A DNA stretch of 64,000 bases from Okamejei kenojei (Eukaryota). A model generated the notes under the pieces. That model searched no databases, was not told the origin of the DNA, and saw only the letters and a program-made list of their open reading frames with translations. Both the position numbers and the translations under genes were made by a program. Location: contig CM069140.1 in NCBI GenBank assembly GCA_035221665.1, forward strand, positions 42,098,001 to 42,162,000, in the 5' to 3' direction. How positions within the stretch are numbered: position 1 is the first letter of the stretch; every line of letters begins with the position of its first letter. Below, in pieces: positions 4,143 to 44,797 of this stretch.

Positions 4143-5540
4143 ATAGAAACATAGAAACATAGAAATTAGGTGCAGGAGTAGGCCATTCAGCCCTTCGAGC
4201 CTGCACCGCCATTCAATATGATCATGGCTGATCATCCAACTCAGTATCCCGTACCTGCCTTCTCTCCATACCCTCTGATCCCCTTAGCCACAAGGGCCAC
4301 ATCCAACTCACTCTTAAATATAGCCAATGAACTGGCCTCAACTACCCTCTGTGGCAGAGAGTTCCAGAGACTCACCACTCTCTGTGTGAAGAAAGTCTTT
4401 CTCATCTCGGTCTTAAAGGATTTCCCCCTTATCCTTAAGCTGTGACCCCTTGTCCTGGACTTCCCCAACATCGGGAACAATCTACCTGCATCTAGCCTGT
4501 CCAACCCCTTAAGAATTTTGTAAGTTTCTATAAGATCCCCTCTTAATCTCCTAAATTCCAGAGAGTATAAACCGAGTCTATCCAGTCTTTCTTCATAAGA
4601 CAGTCCTGACATCCCAGGAATCAGTCTGGTGAACCTTCTCTGCACTCCCTCTATGGCAATAATGTCCTTCCTCAGATTTGGAGACCAAAACTGCACGCAA
4701 TACTCCAGGTGTGGTCTCACCAAGACCCTGTACAACTGAAGTAGAACCTCCCTGCTCCTGTACTCAAATCCTTTTGCTATGAAAGCTAACATACCATTAG
4801 CTTTTTTCACTGCCTGCTGCACCTGCATGCCTACTTTCAATGACTGGTGTACCATGACACCCAGGTCTCGCTGCATCTCCCCTTTTCCTAATCGGCCACC
4901 ATTTAAATAATAGTCTGCTTTCCTGTTTTTGCCACCAAAGTGGATAACCTCACATTTATCCACATTATACTGCATCTGCCAAACATTTGCCCACTCACCC
5001 AGCCTATCCAAGTCACCTTGCAGTCTCCTAGCATCCTCCTCACAGCGAACACTGCCCCCCAGCTTAGTGTCATCCGCAAACTTGGAGATATTGCCTTCAA
5101 TTCCCTCATCCAGATCATTAATATATATTGTAAATAGCTGGGGTCCCAGCACTGAGCCCTGCGGTACCCCACTAGTTACTGCCTGCCATTGTGAAAAGGA
5201 CCCGTTTACTCCTACTCTTTGCTTCCTGTTTGCCAGCCAGTTCTCTATCCACATCAATACTGAACCCCTAATACCGTATGCTTTAAGTTTGTATACTAAT
5301 CTCTTATGTGGGACCTTGTCGAAAGCCTTCTGGAAGTCCAGATATACCACATCCACTGGTTCTCCCTTATCCACGCTACTAGTTACATCCTCGAAAAATT
5401 CCACAAGATTCGTCAGACATGATTTACCTTTTGTAAATCCATGCTGACTTTGTCCAATGATTTCACCACTTTCCAAATGTGCTGCTATCCCATCTTTAAT
5501 AACTGACTCTAGCAGTTTCCCCACTACCGATGTTAGACTA
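4143..5540 (-). mobile_element. Young 5'-truncated CR1 LINE
   Basis: Intact RT-coding frame; 3' tail (TTTCTATG)n read as atagaaacatagaaacatagaaa from 4143; 10-bp direct repeat GTTTGGTTGA at 4134-4143 and 5554-5563. Confidence 0.95.
4241..5524 (-). CDS. CR1 ORF2 C-terminal half (reverse transcriptase), 427 aa uninterrupted, 5'-truncated and lacking the endonuclease; not a host gene
   Basis: RT motifs QHGFTKGKSCLTNL, YLDFQKAFDKVPH, GVPQGSVLGPQLF, SKFADDTK; CR1 C-terminus RPHLEYCVQFWSP, RRLRGDLIETYKI. Confidence 0.9.
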   Translation of the reverse strand: MGKLLESVIKDGIAAHLESGEIIGQSQHGFTKGKSCLTNLVEFFEDVTSSVDKGEPVDVVYLDFQKAFDKVPHKRLVYKLKAYGIRGSVLMWIENWLANRKQRVGVNGSFSQWQAVTSGVPQGSVLGPQLFTIYINDLDEGIEGNISKFADDTKLGGSVRCEEDARRLQGDLDRLGEWANVWQMQYNVDKCEVIHFGGKNRKADYYLNGGRLGKGEMQRDLGVMVHQSLKVGMQVQQAVKKANGMLAFIAKGFEYRSREVLLQLYRVLVRPHLEYCVQFWSPNLRKDIIAIEGVQRRFTRLIPGMSGLSYEERLDRLGLYSLEFRRLRGDLIETYKILKGLDRLDAGRLFPMLGKSRTRGHSLRIRGKSFKTEMRKTFFTQRVVSLWNSLPQRVVEASSLAIFKSELDVALVAKGIRGYGEKAGTGY

Positions 5541-8500
5541 GTTGGTTGAGAGAGTTTGGTTGAGAGAGTGTTACCATGAGAGCACCCGGGTAAATTACCT
5601 CGGTTATTTAGTTAAAAAAAAAGTGAAGCCGTGGTTAATGCTATGTTAAGGTCTTTGTTCTGTGATTAGTCATATTCAGGTTGCAGATAACCTTGGAATG
5701 TATCTGTAGGTTTCTATTTCTAAGGGGATGCAACAACTTATTTTCAAATCATGTTCGCTAGGCAGCACTTGCATAGCACCTGATTGTTTTTAAAATATGT
5801 TTACATATACCAGAAAAGCAGCTGATGCATAGATGCCAAATATAATTTCAAATAGGAAATGTTGGCTGGATTTAGAATAAAACTTCCAGCTCACGCTGAT
5901 GAATAAAATTGTTTACATGCCATCATATCTCATGCCTTTATGTTTTGAAGCAAATAGGACATATGGTGGCCTTCTGTTGTACAGTTTCATTCTTGTGCAT
6001 TTCCATTTTGCTTTTGAGTTTAATAATTAATTATATTTTTGCATATTTTTTTCAAGATATTTGAAAAACAATTTTCTGTTACCCCTTTATTGACAAATTG
6101 TGGCAATATATCATGTATGGGGATATTTCAATGTAAAAATAGAACAGTCCCTTCTTAAGCTGCCTAGAACAAAAGAGACACAATAGTTATAAATATTTCA
6201 AAATTGTTGACGAGCTATTTGGACAGAAAATAAAAGGAACTGAACACATTACACTGGACAGCTGCAGCAGTCTGTGGGGAAAGTTGGTACAGATGGTAGA
6301 AAAAGTGGTAAAATAAAGTGCCTTATGGCTGCTGAATACAAAAAAGAGAGCGAGTTTCATTGGTCGGACGTAAGAAATTTGTTCCCCTGGGAGAGTTTCA
6401 ATACTCGTTGGGCCAAATTAAGGAAAATATTGCAAAAGATGGCAGTCGTGTTGATTTATTTTTTATAAAAGAACACTGGAGATTAATTAGTTAATATTTA
6501 TTCATTAAAATCCAAGACAATGATAATAGTTTCCTAATGAGGATTATAATAATAATTTTCACATTATTGTTTTTACATGTGTTTATGTGTTAGAGAAAGG
6601 GAGAAAAGTAGAGATGATACTAATGCAGCACCTACTTTATTTTATGTGGATTATGTAATAGCACAGTTTAGGTCCCGTACTGTTTACACAGTCCTGCAGA
6701 AAAGCATATCTCTTATTTTCTCTTTCATTGAACTAAGTTTCAGACTAGGTCATCTTAATAATCAGATTTAGGTGCTATACATTTATTTATTTGGAATAGT
6801 AATCAATTATCTTTAATGTGTTCTCCATTTAAGCTAAAGGTACCATGGGAATTTCTTGTAAACTTTGCATTGTTTTTTTTAAATAATAGGGCTTCACATC
6901 TAAAGCTTGCTCTTGCTTCCTCTTTTTCCTCAGATTCTTCAACTGTAGCCTTTTCAGCCAACGTGGTATTCCATTCTAATTTGTGAATGAACCAAAATTG
7001 CATTCATAGGTGTGCATATTTTATCCTCCTGCTGTTCTGAAATCACCCAGCTCATTTGCCCTGGCTTGAAATTGGAACTGAGTATTGCTGACCAGAGCCT
7101 AAACACAGTTATTCGTTAGTTGAGCCAAGTGCCAGAAAGAGTTATGGATCCAGAACTCAAGGGTTCAATAGAACGGATGGTGCATCAGTGTCTTAATGAC
7201 TAATGTGAGGTGAAGGTAGGCCTACTTTACTTGCCAGTACATCAATTTATATTTACCAGACAGTCGGGAAAGAATCTGAAAACATAATATCAATTCTGCT
7301 CAATGAAGGGAAATACTTACAGAAAAAAAGGAAAATCCTGGAAGAGTGAATAAGTTTAGAATTGATAAGGTTTTTCCCGCACCCATCCTCAGCAGTAATT
7401 GAAGTAACTTCCCAAGAACACTGGGACAATCAGGGAAATCACAAAAATAAAACAGATGGGGAAAAAAATGAAGAGTCAATTACACTTTGGAGCAAATATA
7501 CTAGTCAAAAGAGATGGTGTTTCTGTTATGATTATTTTACAGTGCTGTAGAATACGTTAACTATTATTATTCTGTTCATACTTCCTGATAGTTGTGATTT
7601 AAAGTAGTTCATTATATTTTGTGTAAGAAAAGATTGTGTATTATACTGTGTGTACCTGACGTGAAATTATGCTATTTGTTCTTGACTCCCACTACAATTA
7701 GGATAACGCTGTTAAGTATCTCTTCCAGATATTGCAAGCTAGGTAATAAATTGAGTTGAAGTGAGATTCATTCTCGAGACGTTGTTTCTATTTTTCTAAA
7801 AGGGAGTTATTGAGCAGAAATTTGTACCATGACAATTAGAATAAATAATTTAAAAGACTTAAAAATCTGCACTGTTTATACAGCAAGATGTTTTGGCACA
7901 TAAGGAAAAGATGTAAGGTAGATTGAGCAGAGGGGTGCTACCTAAATTATCCTTGCTAAGGTCACAACAGATGTAGTGTATCATGCAAGTGTTTTCTCAG
8001 CATCAATATGCTGTTCTATTGTGGGTAATGCAGTGTAATCAGATCAATACAACATTCTTTTTATCTGCAAAAAAAAAATGTCCTCAATGGGGAGTCAAAA
8101 TGCCCCTGGAGATGGGTTTTCCCAGTTGTCCACAACCCCCCCTCCCCTCTCTTTCTCACCCCCACCAATGAAAACCTTGTTAGAAATTCAAGCCCTCAGC
8201 ATAATTGCATTGGATTTTCAAAGAGGTGGCTTTGCATTGCTGGGTCTCTAGAAATGGAGAGAATACTACTGTATTTGACTGGACTAATTGGTGAATTTGT
8301 CTAGTAAAATGCTCCACATCCCACAATAGGTGAGAATTCAGTCTGTCCTTCTTTTGGTTCTAAGTGAACAATCACTTTTCTTCAGGCTAATTAAAGTGCT
8401 TGCAGATTAGTCGAGCAAAGACGAACTTGAGCCTACTTTTTATTGCAGGGATTGAGAGGAAATCTATAAACCAGCCCTGCTAGTTGCGGATAGTGGTCTG

Positions 8501-36649: not shown

Positions 36650-36881
36650 AAGGTAGACTCAAAATGCTGGAGTAACTCAGTGGGACCGACCGCATCTCTG
36701 AAGAGAAGGAATGGGTGATGTTTTGGGTCGAGACCCTTCTTCAGACTTCAGAAATCTGAAGAAGGGTCTCGTCCCAAAACATCACCCATTCCTTCTCTCC
36801 AGAAATGTTGCCTGTCCTGCTGAGTTACTCCAGCATTTTGTGTCTACCTTCAATTTAAACCAGCATCTGCAGTTCTTTCCT
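36650..36881. mobile_element. Penelope-derived short element as an inverted duplication with 16-bp TSD
   Basis: AGACATGGATTCTTCT at 36634-36649 and 36882-36897; ~100-bp inverted arms centred on cttcagacttcagaaatctgaag. Confidence 0.9.
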
Positions 36882-38098: not shown

Positions 38099-40166
38099 TA
38101 TTACTATATTGACCCTTGCAACATAATGTTCTCAATTCAATTATCATGGCTAAGAAAAATCATGACAACACTTTTGTTTTCTTGAACAAAGGGCCAGTTT
38201 CTGTGGGAAACATCTGAAAAATATTCCATTTTAATGGGATTGGTGATATCATGATATTCTAAAACAGTTTTTCTGACCTGTGTTTTGCACAGTAGATTCT
38301 AGCATGCCTACCCCGTTTATAAAATATTTTTGGGAAACATCACATAATATAATTGCTTTGTTGCTGTTGCTGGTCTGGTTCTCAAAAGTATTTTTTTTTT
38401 TTTGCAAACTGACAGATACACAAGGAGATTGCGGTGGACAGTTCTTGGTTTTGTTTAATACTATTTTAAACCAAACCTGTTTCAAACTAGTATAACACTT
38501 ATTCAGCAGAAACCCAATCCATTAAAATACGACTTTTATTCTTCCCAAAAATGCTCCCTCAATTCACTGTGGTACTCTTAATATAATATTTTAGTACAGA
38601 TAATCATACTCTATTATGAAACTATGGTGAATATTGTCAGTTCCCAGTCTGGGGGATAGAAAAAATCTCTGAAAGTTCATGCGTATTTTTAACAATATTG
38701 CAGCGTATGCTAATGGAAACCATTTTAAATAGCAGTGAAGAAACAAAGCCATTGTGCTGTATTGACATATTGATGTAAAAAAGATTAACCTTGAAAGTTG
38801 ATATACCCGACTATAATAACAACTTAAGCCTTTGTTTTTCTTATATATAATGAGCTGGATTGTCGTGCATTTGGCCCTGCCCAAACTTGCCGCTCTGGGT
38901 TCCTATTCGTCGACACTAACGCGATCCACATATGAGGGGTTGACTGAACTGAGCTTCCATCCCTGGATTCAACGAAACGGGACGGGCTGTGAGTGCCTCG
39001 AATATTGTCGGCACCAGTGGCCTTTTGACGCTTGCAGCTGTCAAAAGCCTTTAAACTATATATAAATGCCACTAATGATCAGAAAGTTTAAACAAAATTG
39101 AAAGAGACTGAAATAGTTGTCAAAAATATAACATTAAATCTAATTAAATTGTGAGAGATTTTAATTGACGACATTGAGATAAAGAGTGTTAAATAAATCA
39201 CATGCTGATTCAAGGTCAGTGACTACATTCAAACAAATGAAGCAATGTGGATTGTGCCTGTCTTGCCTCGGTATTAGTGATTTACTGCAAAATTCATCCC
39301 ATGCATGCTCCATCCAATTTAATAATCACCTTAGTAGATATAAACTTAAGTTATAAGCACTTAGAAAAATGGATTGCTTGCCTTCAAAAAAAAAGTTTGA
39401 AGATTTGCTCGGTTAATTAGAAAATATTCTGAAATGAACATAGTGAGGAGTACCGATAGCCAACACAGTCCATAGTGTGTTGTTAACTGATATAAGCTGT
39501 TGTGATTAAAGAATTTGAGATCTTGCAATTACCTATATTATGGTGGATTATCATTTTACATTGGCTAACGGAGATGAATAGTAGAGTCATTATTTTGATT
39601 GGCTTCTAAACAATTCAAAATATCTAAGCAGCAAGAACCCATTTAAAATCATTTTGTGGCCCTCTAATGATTGTTGATTTGGAATTTAACGGAGTGCATT
39701 TTAAGGAATTTAAGGCTGCATTATCTTCCTTTGTCAGCTTCCATAGTTCTGTTTTAGGACCATCAAGAAGTGTCATTTAAAGCCTTGTGTGAATAGCATT
39801 CTGTCGCTGTTTAATAAATCCAGCTCTTATGTGGCATTTACTGCTGGAATTAAGGCAATTTTGTTTCAATTTCAAACCTTTGTTGCTGAAACGTTCGAAC
39901 CCTTTTCATTTCCATACTCTGATGAAAACTTTCTGCTATTTGAAAAGTATCATCGATAGTTGAGAAACTTTATTAGAAGATTTTATGTTGTTAATGACTA
40001 AAGGAGTAACCATTTTGCATGTGAAGATTAGGTGACGGTTGTTAAAATGGATGTTGTCATTTCATGATTTTACGAAAGAGATAAATAATTTCTATAAACA
40101 AAGAATCTCAATGCTTATCGTTAAAAGTTCCTCCAGCATAATGTTTTTCCCTGTATCCGTGCACGT

Positions 40167-40304
40167 CTTCTTCTTGCGTACGCCATGCACAACCTAAAGT
40201 TGTAGGACAACTTGTTCTATTTGATCTTATTTGATTGTGCACGCCGGGTTGATTGCATTCGTCGAAACAGGGCGGACCACGTGAAGGTTACAATCTTCCA
40301 CCCC
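40167..40304 (-). mobile_element. 138-bp retroposon (SINE-like) with (AAG)n tail and 11-bp TSD
   Basis: TCCGTGCACGT at 40156-40166 and 40305-40315; the minus strand ends ...tacgcAAGAAGAAG; no tRNA A/B boxes seen. Confidence 0.88.
40251..40304 (-). ncRNA. Candidate minimal HDV-like self-cleaving ribozyme
   Basis: Manual fold: P1 GGGGUGG/CCGCCCU (G1-U wobble), P2 GAUUGUA/UGCAAUC, P3 ACC/GGU, L3 UUCACGU, G plus mini-P4 U-UUCG-A, J4/2 CGAA with the putative catalytic C at 40261. Confidence 0.8.
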
Positions 40305-40974
40305 TCCGTGCACGTGATAATAATAAACCAATACAAATATTCATTTAATATCCTGCCTGGTCATGGATTACTCCAGCTGGATCTGGTTTCAGACTTCTCT
40401 TGTGCCAAAGACAGGTAATGGAGCAGCTCTTAATGTAGTCTGAGTTAGCTGAAAACCAATGAGAACTGGTGGTTTATTACTATCTGGGCCTGAAACTGTC
40501 CATGGTTACTCAGTCAGTTTGTGAATGCAGTCCTACATGCATTCTCAATTTATTTTAAAGGGTCTGGGTGTTTTGAACTGTTAGAAATGTTATATCTTGG
40601 TGTGAAAAGGAAACATTAAGCCATGTATGAGGTGCAGCATGGGCATAATTATGTAATTGCAACATGTTGCCAGATATTTAAACAATGACTACAGTGAATT
40701 TACTGTTTGAATGTGGTTTTAACTGCGGTTAAAACAGTTCAAATACCCCCAATTGGAATTAATTTAAAATATTGTAATTTTTTTTCTATTTGATCCCTTT
40801 TCTCAAAATAAAGCTTTACTGTTGTTAATAATTTGAGCTAAGGTTCCCATGTCAGGTTAACATTAATTTCGTAGATAGCTATAAGATATTAAGTAAGGCG
40901 AAACACTTCTGGGATGATCCTCGATCTGTGGTAAACTATCTTGGCTCAGCTCCGGTGGCATTAGGGACAAAATA

Positions 40975-42595
40975 CAGTGCCCTCCATAATGTTTGGGACA
41001 AAGACCCATCATTTATTTATTTGCCTCTGTACACTACAATTTGAGATTTGTAATATAAAAAAATCACATGTGGTTAAAGTGCACATTGTCAGATTTTAAT
41101 AAAGGCCATTCTATTTTAATTTTGGTTTCACCATGTAGAAATTACAGCAGTGATTATACATAGTCACCCCATTCCTGGGCACCATAATGTTTCGGACACA
41201 GCAATGTCATGTGAATGAAAGTAATCATGTTTAGTATTTTGTTGCATATCCTTTGCATGCAATGACTGCTTGAAGTCTGCGATTCATGGACATCACCAAT
41301 TGCTGGATGTCTTCTCTGGTGATGCTCTGTCAGGCCTATATTGCAGACATATTTTGCTTGTGCTTGTTTTGGGGGCTAGTCCCCTTCAGTTTTCTCTTCA
41401 GCATATAAAAGGCATGCTCAATTGGGTTCAGATCGGGTGATGGACATGGCCAGTCAAGAATTGACCATTTTTAGCTTTGGAAAACTAATTTGTTGCTTTG
41501 ACAGTATGTTTGGGATCATTGTATTGCTGTAGAATTAGTTTTGAGGCATTTGTTTGAACTTGAGTAGGTAGGATGTGTTTATACACTTCAGAATTCATGA
41601 TGCGCTACTACCATCAGCAGTTGTATCATCAATGAAGATAAGTGAGCCAGTACTTTCAGCAACCATACATGCCCAGGCCATAACACCCCCACCACCATGT
41701 TTCACAGATGAGGTGGTATGCTTTAGATCTTGGGTAGTTCCTTCTCTCCTCCATAATTTGCTCTTGTCATCACTCTGATGTAATCGTCATCTCATCTGTC
41801 CGCAAGACCTTTTTACATAACTGTGGTTGTTCTTTTAAGTACTTCTTGGCAAACTGTAACCCGGCCATCCTATTTTTGCAGCTATTTTTGCAGTGGTTTG
41901 CATCTTGCAGTGTAGCCTCTGTATTTCTGTTCATGAAGTCTTCTGAGGACAGTGGTCATTGACAAATCCTCACCTGACTCCTGAAGAGTGTTTCTGATCT
42001 GTCGGACAGGTGTTTGGGGATTTTTCTTTATTATAGATATAATTCTTCTGTCATCAGCTGTGGAGGTCTTCCTTGGCCTGCCAGTCCCTTTGCGATTAGT
42101 AAGCTCACCAGTGCTCTCTTTCTTCTTAATGTTGTTTCAAACAGTTGATTTTGATAAGCCTAAGGTTTGGCTGATGTATCTGACAGTTTTATTCTTGTTT
42201 CTCACTCATAATGACTTATTGGATTTTCATTGGCACAAATTTGGTCCTCATGTTGAGAAAAAGCAATAAAAGTTTCCAAAGGAGATGGAAAGACTGGAGA
42301 AAGACTAGGTGCTGAGAGCTCTCTTATACCTGCATTAAGGAGCCAATTAAATGTACATGAGCAATTACAAACACCTGTGAAGTTGTGTGTCCCAAACATT
42401 ATGGTGCCCTGAAATGGGGCGACAATGACACTGCTGTAATTTCTACATGGTGAAACCAAAATGTATAAAAACGGCCTTTAATAAAATCTGACAATGTGCA
42501 CTTTAACCACATGTGATTTTTTTTTTTCTATTACAAAACTCAAATTATGGCAAATAAATAAATGATAGGTCTTTGTCCTAAACATTATGGAACTG
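40975..42595 (-). mobile_element. Full-length Tc1/mariner DNA transposon (IR/DR type), inactive
   Basis: TA dinucleotides at 40973-40974 and 42596-42597; ~220-bp TIRs starting CAGTG; each TIR carries two copies of ccataatgttt(g/c)ggaca or its reverse complement. Confidence 0.95.
41231..42251 (-). pseudogene. Tc1 DDE transposase pseudogene
   Basis: MRTK...LGLSKSTV...GTGRPRKTS, VLRTDE, QQYNDPKHT (second catalytic D changed to Y), WPCPSPDLNPIEHAF, RRLQAVIACKGYATKY*; contains stops and frameshifts. Confidence 0.9.
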
Positions 42596-44390: not shown

Positions 44391-44607
44391 TGCCTAATGT
44401 TTGAGATGTCCATAGGACAGCTGTCTCAATTCTGGAATGAGCTCCCAGATGTGAGTGATCAGGAATCACTAAAGTTAATTTGGATTAGTGTGTATTTGTC
44501 ATGTTCAAATCCTATGCGTAGGTTGATTGTTTTATTATGGATTTTCATAAAGTTATGGGATGTGCATTTGAGTGGGCATTGAGTATGCCACAATATTATT
44601 AGTTTGG

Positions 44608-44797
44608 ACACAAAATGCTGGAGTAATTCTGTGAGACAGGCAGCATCTCTGGAGAGAAGGAATGGGTGACCTTTCGGGTCGAGACCCGAAACGTCACCCA
44701 TTCCTTCTCTCCAGAGATGCTGCCTGTTCCGCTGAGTTACTCCAGCATTTTGTGTACATCTTTGATTTAAACCAGCATCTGTAGTTCTTTCCTACAC
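44608..44797. mobile_element. Fold-back Penelope-derived short element
   Basis: Palindrome centred on tttcgggtc-GA-gacccgaaa (44672-44691); imperfect TSD attattagtttgg (44595-44607) and attattaaattgg (44798-44810). Confidence 0.85.

Follow-up and report, generated by a model that had tools for sequence, protein, structure and literature searches.

A 138-bp Vingi-type mini-retroposon of a skate, with a predicted P4-less HDV-like ribozyme at its 5' end

The window (the whole 64,000-nt stretch of Okamejei kenojei contig CM069140.1 that was analysed) carries a 138-nt segment that runs on the minus strand from 40304 to 40167 and is bounded by identical 11-mers at 40156-40166 and 40305-40315. The corresponding empty site was found in a contig of sequencing run X13, from another organism, which joins position 40155 to position 40305 and whose flanks differ from the window at 36/613 letters. 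This contig skips 149 nt, that is 138 + 11, with the 11 letters fitting both sides, and therefore fixes both the insertion and its target-site duplication (TSD). The perfect 11-bp TSDs that a preliminary description of this DNA had proposed around a 138-bp insertion were thus borne out, as was its placing of G1, the predicted cleavage position, at the insertion's first nucleotide: the TSD abuts G1 and the limits given by the empty site agree. The features of the locus, in element order, are:

40305-40315, no strand: TSD on the element's 5' side, directly abutting G1 (identical 11-mers; empty site)
40167-40304, minus strand: 138-bp bipartite non-autonomous Vingi-type element (family matches, parent LINE, empty site)
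40251-40304, minus strand: predicted P4-less HDV-like ribozyme of 54 nt, with predicted cleavage 5' of G1 (40304)
40298-40304, minus strand: 5' strand of P1, partner 40269-40275 (7/7 pairs; two-sided changes at 4/7 across five families)
40289-40295, minus strand: 5' strand of P2, partner 40251-40257 (7/7 pairs; two-sided changes at 7/7 across five families)
40276-40288, minus strand: P3 (3 bp) and the 7-nt loop L3, UUCACGU (3/3 pairs; one two-sided change across families)
40262-40268, minus strand: G-U after P1 and a 5-nt stub replacing P4 (16-43 nt here in sister families)
40258-40261, minus strand: J4/2 CGAA with the predicted catalytic C at 40261 (CUAA in the parent LINE; from sequence)
40226-40250, minus strand: remainder of the parent LINE 5' UTR, element nt 55-79 (matches LINE copies L199, L205, L206 and L207)
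40211-40225, minus strand: junction, probably a short duplication of the 5' UTR end plus 5 further bases (another source is absent in three LINE copies)
40167-40210, minus strand: 3' end of the parent LINE, comprising last codons, stop, short 3' UTR and tail (LINE 3'-end matches)
40194-40196, minus strand: stop codon of the parent LINE, element nt 109-111 (coding stretch of L125)
40167-40175, minus strand: (AAG)3 tail (sequence)
40156-40166, no strand: TSD on the element's 3' side (identical 11-mers; single copy at the empty site, run X13)

The earlier suggestion that an active copy could cleave host transcripts crossing it found no backing in a scan of 87 among the 199 stop-free frames of the window (62 aa or longer): it revealed no host exon, could miss short exons and had as its sole find a Tc1 transposase HTH fragment (41885-42136, minus strand). 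This fragment lies between the inverted repeats of a Tc1-like DNA transposon remnant at 41057-42523. Elsewhere the window holds a 456-aa CR1 RT open frame (4241-5611, minus strand), whose protein shares 89-94% identity with entries of Leucoraja erinacea and points to a skate-like cartilaginous fish, and several copies of an abundant ~200-bp palindromic repeat (e.g., 36650-36850 and 44605-44758). Contigs of run X6, taken to be RNA only by guess, cover just the repeat at the window locus and give no ends, strand or level.

The first 54 nt of the element are predicted to form a very small HDV-type ribozyme that would release the element from longer RNAs. The fold of the window copy held as previously drawn, a nested double pseudoknot with a 7-bp P1 including the G1-U pair, a 7-bp P2, a 3-bp P3, the 7-nt L3 and the catalytic C at 40261; beside G1-U, P1 contains a U5-G wobble, and P2 one U-G. 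The drawing needed correction at P4, which had been described as reduced to a UUCG loop: the 7 nt after the 3' strand of P1 read GUUUCGA, and the short stub has at most one closing U-A pair, so that we call the fold P4-less. All HDV core bases, namely G1, the U..C..G of L3, the G after P1 (P1.1), the catalytic C and the last A of J4/2, are present in the window copy and are the majority letters in 76 full-length copies of the family, as judged against a core consensus that agrees with the printed CPEB3 core. A descriptor built on the HDV consensus matched once in the window, as compared with 0.01 matches per shuffled window (100 shuffles). The suggested Rfam lookup returned no ribozyme match, and hence no HDV-like family, for the window copy at E ≤ 10, and a single family copy reached only 16 bits (E 9.7); the Rfam threshold is a convenience of the database and no structural criterion. 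Nested-only folding, which cannot score the pseudoknot, gave 0.77-1.0 for P1 and only 0.06-0.14 for P3, and when the native 50-nt leader was included, the TSD was predicted to pair with the 3' strand of P2. The activity of the window copy in place is uncertain because of this weak P3 and the pairing of the TSD: the copy keeps all pairs, yet may misfold where it lies.

The element shows no head of the SINE kind. Neither a Pol III A box nor a B box was matched by four regular expressions for these boxes, in line with the earlier note that Pol III boxes are lacking, and Rfam gave no small-RNA match for the element, whose head is instead the 5' UTR of a LINE; a SINE in the strict sense, with a head from tRNA, 5S or 7SL, was rejected on these grounds. 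The (AAG)3 ending was present as described, at 40167-40175. The remnant of the 5' UTR (nt 60-69, 40236-40245) is predicted to form a stem with the 3' end (nt 114-123, 40182-40191), and an A-to-G change at nt 61 of the short family extends this stem to 10 bp as compared with the LINE.

The parent was found with a ribozyme pattern that excluded the middle of the short element and gave 288 matches, 30 of which were read. One of them, L125, is flanked by a TSD and carries, beside the same ribozyme, coding sequence for a LINE C-terminus and the last 39 nt of the element; this coding sequence led to a LINE family (family A) colinear with protein P0001, a single ORF of 1,019 aa that has an APE and an RT domain but gave no Pfam match to RNase H. 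LINE 5' ends located through the N-terminus of P0001 share nt 1-77 of the element, and the same LINE copies match both nt 1-77 and nt 95/100-138 (e.g., L225, L226 and L230). The LINE copies measure 3.0-3.1 kb and have in common with the element their first ~77 and last ~44 nt; L225, with TSDs on both sides, spans 3,043 bp and has the G1 start as well as the tail of the element. The autonomous LINE sharing both ends that the preliminary description had proposed to look for was thus found as an APE+RT LINE, in decayed copies such as L225. The family-A LINE copies checked are broken, with longest stop-free frames of 178-414 aa in three of them. A forward 5' end is present in six LINE copies; G1 is the start in one of them and nt 8-39 in the rest, and two further copies have the 5' end inverted. 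Copies in which the ribozyme end lies in the opposite orientation to the 3' part include L167, L169, L174, L232 and L234.

Since it is a single-ORF APE+RT element without RNase H, the parent is Vingi-type by the anatomy given for Vingi in PMC13708176 (a compact single ORF with APE and RT and no RNase H). An RT tree of 20 rows, which included no labelled Vingi or Ingi protein and from which 7 picked loci had been dropped for matches shorter than 150 aa, placed the parent with P0001, arthropod single-ORF elements and the sister families described below, apart from RTE, CR1 and Nimb (100/100). An RTE parent was excluded: the RTE loci examined (30 of 150 matches reached via PF20049) share only the (AAG)n tail, and the RT tree separates RTE. 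Nimb-, CR1- and L2/CR1-like LINEs (reached via PF14529, 40 of 150 matches examined) share no ends with the element, and a 15-nt match within Nimb ORF1 was judged to be chance. The genome also holds an RTE family ending in (AAG)n (L132-L161) and a two-ORF LINE family with RNase H (L031-L068), one copy of which has a 1,276-aa open frame and which we take to be Nimb-like. Protein P0002, from the eel Synaphobranchus kaupii, agreed at ~75-90% with L225, L230, L188 and L184 in many unbroken blocks; agreement with the parent LINE was lower across frameshifts, and that between P0002 and P0001 just 56-71%. This likeness of eel and skate LINEs is likely to reflect horizontal transfer between fish lineages.

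Because both of its ends derive from one APE+RT LINE whose ORF was deleted, the element is, on its sequence, a bipartite non-autonomous LINE like NARTc, RIME, the R2 SIDEs and Vingi-N, and no true SINE. What had been proposed was a promoterless SINE-like family borrowing an ingi/Vingi- or RTE-type LINE. A multicopy, non-autonomous, ingi/Vingi-type family with an HDV-like 5' end is indeed what was found; the parts that fell away are the true SINE, the RTE partner and the borrowing of a foreign LINE, for the element arose by internal deletion from its own parent, which also handed down the ribozyme.

The family is abundant. A 30-place 3' pattern had 2,762 exact matches in the 2.76-Gb genome and the 37-nt ribozyme core 1,147, with no match for the reversed control of either, and a 3' pattern with the private bases of the window copy matched that copy alone. 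The family comprises at least 2,762 copies; a rough overlap estimate, based on the exact core being also present in 4/90 copies picked by their 3' end, gave ~26,000 (interval about 10,000-94,000), to be read as an order of 10^4-10^5. The repeat was present in sequencing runs of at least six organisms. We read the first 90 of the 2,762 3' matches, which lie on one contig, were picked blind to their 5' end and include two duplicates of one insertion. These comprised 87 short elements and 3 LINE 3' ends. The alignment started at nt 1 in 64/87 of the short copies, at nt 1-4 in 76/87 and later in 11; 66/87 had TSDs of 8-17 bp, and the tails counted 1-11 triplet units. In 61 of 76 copies the TSD ended 3 nt or less from G1, as compared with 8/754 mismatched pairs used as control. 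The check on copy number and 5'-end uniformity put forward in the preliminary description was therefore answered by a multicopy family in which 76/87 copies start within 4 nt of G1. Target-site specificity was rejected, the flanks of the copies being unrelated; the GTGCAC word in the TSD of the window copy is no rule in the TSDs of other copies. At L116 and three further places, the first bases of the element recur in reverse complement after the ribozyme core, as in locally inverted copies.

Inserted copies appear, from their substitutions, to decay neutrally. All pairs and core bases were intact in 15/76 full-length copies, and at most one pair was broken in 28/76. The catalytic C, which sits in a CpG in the commonest form, was T in 12/76 and decays at the CpG rate. 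Selection on the ribozyme after insertion was unsupported (CpG decay of 21% in the ribozyme and 22% elsewhere); non-CpG divergence was 3.6% in the ribozyme as compared with 5.4% elsewhere (p = 0.0006), where the rest includes subfamily variants. Variants recur at nt 8, 15, 32 and 45, and each of them agrees with the fold, which argues for constraint on the source copies and none on the inserted ones. Given this apparent neutrality and the broken state of the parent copies examined, the family is likely old or dead.

Four other Vingi-type families in this genome start with different HDV-like folds. The descriptor matched upstream of APE in 15/50 Vingi-type loci, as compared with 0/50 reverse complements and 0/500 shuffles; 0/18 family-A LINE loci passed it, these being mutated, truncated or without a 5' end. 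The limits of the elements fell within -8 to +4 nt of G1 in 8/8 copies of family B, 6/7 of family D, 3/6 of family C and 1/3 of family E. The P4 region measures 16-43 nt in the sister families and 5 nt in family A. Rfam HDV-like models scored 26-34 bits on three sister 5' ends, below their thresholds of 44-50, with E-values of 0.006 and 0.018 among these sub-threshold matches. Across the five families, represented by one natural copy each, 84/85 helix cells pair, a share inflated by the choice of rows with a descriptor that demands pairing. The covariation in P1-P3 that had been named as a check was present in these descriptor-picked rows, 12/17 pairs changing on both sides. With the shuffle controls, the matches upstream of APE and these two-sided changes, we rejected a chance fold.

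One of the other Vingi-type LINEs has given rise to a second short family, with 326 exact matches to a 35-place pattern, which also starts at G1. Short elements made up 23 of the 30 matches read, 20 of them with a TSD. This second family (L325, L326, L350 and others) measures ~195 bp plus (AAG)n, with a median pairwise identity of 99% (n = 18); by its sequence it is much younger, and the better candidate for an activity test. As it derives from another Vingi-type LINE and likewise starts at G1, the ribozyme-headed short design arose at least twice in this genome. In both short families the base preceding G1 is often T (39/64 family-A copies, as compared with a 29% background, and 15/23 copies of the second family), either within the TSD or as an extra base; one possible cause is a non-templated A, added at the end of the cDNA, that pairs with the target.

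Taken together, the element is most probably a deletion derivative of a Vingi-type LINE, in which a predicted P4-less ribozyme would free the source RNA at G1 and the APE-RT of the parent would insert it by target-primed reverse transcription. A source copy would be transcribed within a longer Pol II read-through RNA; the ribozyme would cleave before G1 and so define the 5' end; the APE-RT protein of the parent LINE would then bind the shared 3' end with its (AAG)n tail and insert the RNA at unrelated sites, leaving TSDs of 8-17 bp. Because the RNA is short, most copies would be full length and keep the ribozyme. In this sequence of steps, cleavage, the transcription source and mobilisation in trans are what we infer; what was observed is the structure and parentage of the element, the number of its copies with their uniform 5' ends and TSDs, the empty site and the covariation across families.

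Uniform starts at G1 could also be set by transcription. The proposed lack of a promoter is borne out for Pol III boxes only. The element retains ~77 nt of the parent 5' UTR, and in L1Tc the corresponding 77 nt double as a Pol II promoter, this L1Tc/NARTc hallmark acting as promoter and ribozyme (from the part of PMC4035085 consulted); an internal Pol II promoter like L1Tc Pr77 might thus start at G1, with the ribozyme secondary, and a promoter would be compatible with cleavage too. That each of five families, with differing helix sequences, starts at its own G1 or close to it indicates, however, that a conserved structure and not a conserved sequence marks the start, and we consider this explanation unlikely. 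Somewhat less likely still is that the P4-less fold of family A no longer cleaves and was retained as a protective or protein-binding 5' structure. HDV-like folds shield R2 template RNA from 5' decay, according to the excerpt of PMC13708176, the P4 region is far shorter than in every sister family, and P3 is weak in nested folding; yet the catalytic C, the G1-U pair and the L3 core are majority letters among the copies, the recurrent variants at the four positions named above all suit the fold, and in vitro activity is on record for P4-less ribozymes (theta ribozyme preprint, in part).

Of the explanations considered, the least probable by some way is that a different LINE, for instance an RTE with (AAG)n or another Vingi-type family, spread the element after the death of its parent. 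RTE copies and other Vingi-type families here also end in (AAG)n, and the family-A LINE copies examined are broken, but the 39-44 nt before the tail are common to family A only, and the pairwise identities of ~86% among LINE copies and ~88% among short copies are consistent with overlapping activity. The reading as a deletion derivative mobilised by its own parent is the one we carry forward.

A related 5' end links Vingi to a mammalian gene. The gharial element Vingi-2_Gav (nt 2-74, printed in the supplement of PMC5786205) and the elephant CPEB3 ribozyme (supplement of PMC8233481), compared by eye, agree at 38/40 positions over the stretch from P1 through the P4 base and at 14/14 of the last positions, the main difference being the tip of P4. 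Both share L3, the G-U and J4/2 with the skate element, and its helices differ from theirs. According to the consulted part of PMC8233481, the CPEB3 ribozyme is not found outside mammals, and a link between Vingi and CPEB3 was not found proposed in the literature searched. The near-identity suggests a possible descent of the CPEB3 ribozyme from a Vingi 5' end and makes its origin directly testable. On balance we lean towards the broader view that Vingi-clade LINEs as a rule begin with an HDV-like ribozyme, that such ribozymes repeatedly founded mini-retroposons in skates (P4-less in family A, in thousands of copies, possibly cleaving) and that the CPEB3 ribozyme is a domesticated Vingi 5' end.

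The element by itself is a good example rather than a new principle, the design of a ribozyme head and a LINE tail being known. It does place a P4-less HDV-like ribozyme in a retroposon of a vertebrate, where natural variants number in the thousands, adds Vingi-type LINEs to those whose 5' end is defined by a ribozyme and, with its 138 nt, marks the minimal natural cis ends of a Vingi-type LINE, a clade now used for RNA gene-insertion tools (PMC13708176, in part). The literature searched, with Repbase and Dfam outside the comparison, held no description of the skate family, which may already be catalogued, and no statement on a Vingi ribozyme, a result limited to partial texts; Ruminski 2011, Kojima 2011 and Webb 2009 may cover ribozymes of fish or of Vingi-like elements. 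RTE, Ingi, Vingi and R2 are known to make bipartite non-autonomous LINEs, and the excerpt of PMC5786205 that says so lists ribozymes for six clades, Vingi not among them.

Several known systems resemble the skate element in part. The internal deletions of Vingi-1_EE (Kojima et al. 2011, as cited in the consulted part of PMC5786205) are the same kind of TSD-flanked vertebrate remnant made of the 5' and 3' ends of a compact single-ORF Vingi LINE. NARTc, RIME and SIDER of trypanosomatids, in the L1Tc/ingi clade with its Pr77 ribozyme, are likewise short and carry a ~77-nt 5' end with an HDV-like ribozyme at +1 (PMC4035085, in part), whereas the skate element has a vertebrate host, a parent without RNase H, an (AAG)n tail, a length of 138 nt, a P4-less 54-nt fold and thousands of copies. 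The R2 SIDEs and R2/R1 hybrid SIDEs of Drosophila also join a 5' HDV-like ribozyme to a LINE 3' end (PMC3414825, in part); these are rare and site-specific to rDNA, whereas the skate family lies genome-wide at unrelated sites and has an APE-type parent.

Among ribozymes, drz-Mtgn-1 and the theta ribozymes are likewise P4-less, with a compact double pseudoknot and the catalytic C in J4/2, but come from metagenomes and from gut phages beside tRNAs, whereas the present fold heads a vertebrate retroposon; the theta motif was absent from the human, mouse and protist genomes searched there (bioRxiv 10.1101/2023.06.13.544163, in part). The mammalian CPEB3 ribozyme, in its printed elephant sequence, has the same L3 UUCACGU, the G-U after P1 and a CGAA-type J4/2, but differs in its helix sequences, has a P4 and is single-copy and intronic; the Rfam CPEB3 model gave no match on the element. 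Set against these systems, the joining of a ribozyme head to a LINE tail is known, whereas ribozymes in Vingi-type LINEs and a P4-less form in a vertebrate are, as far as the literature searched shows, new.
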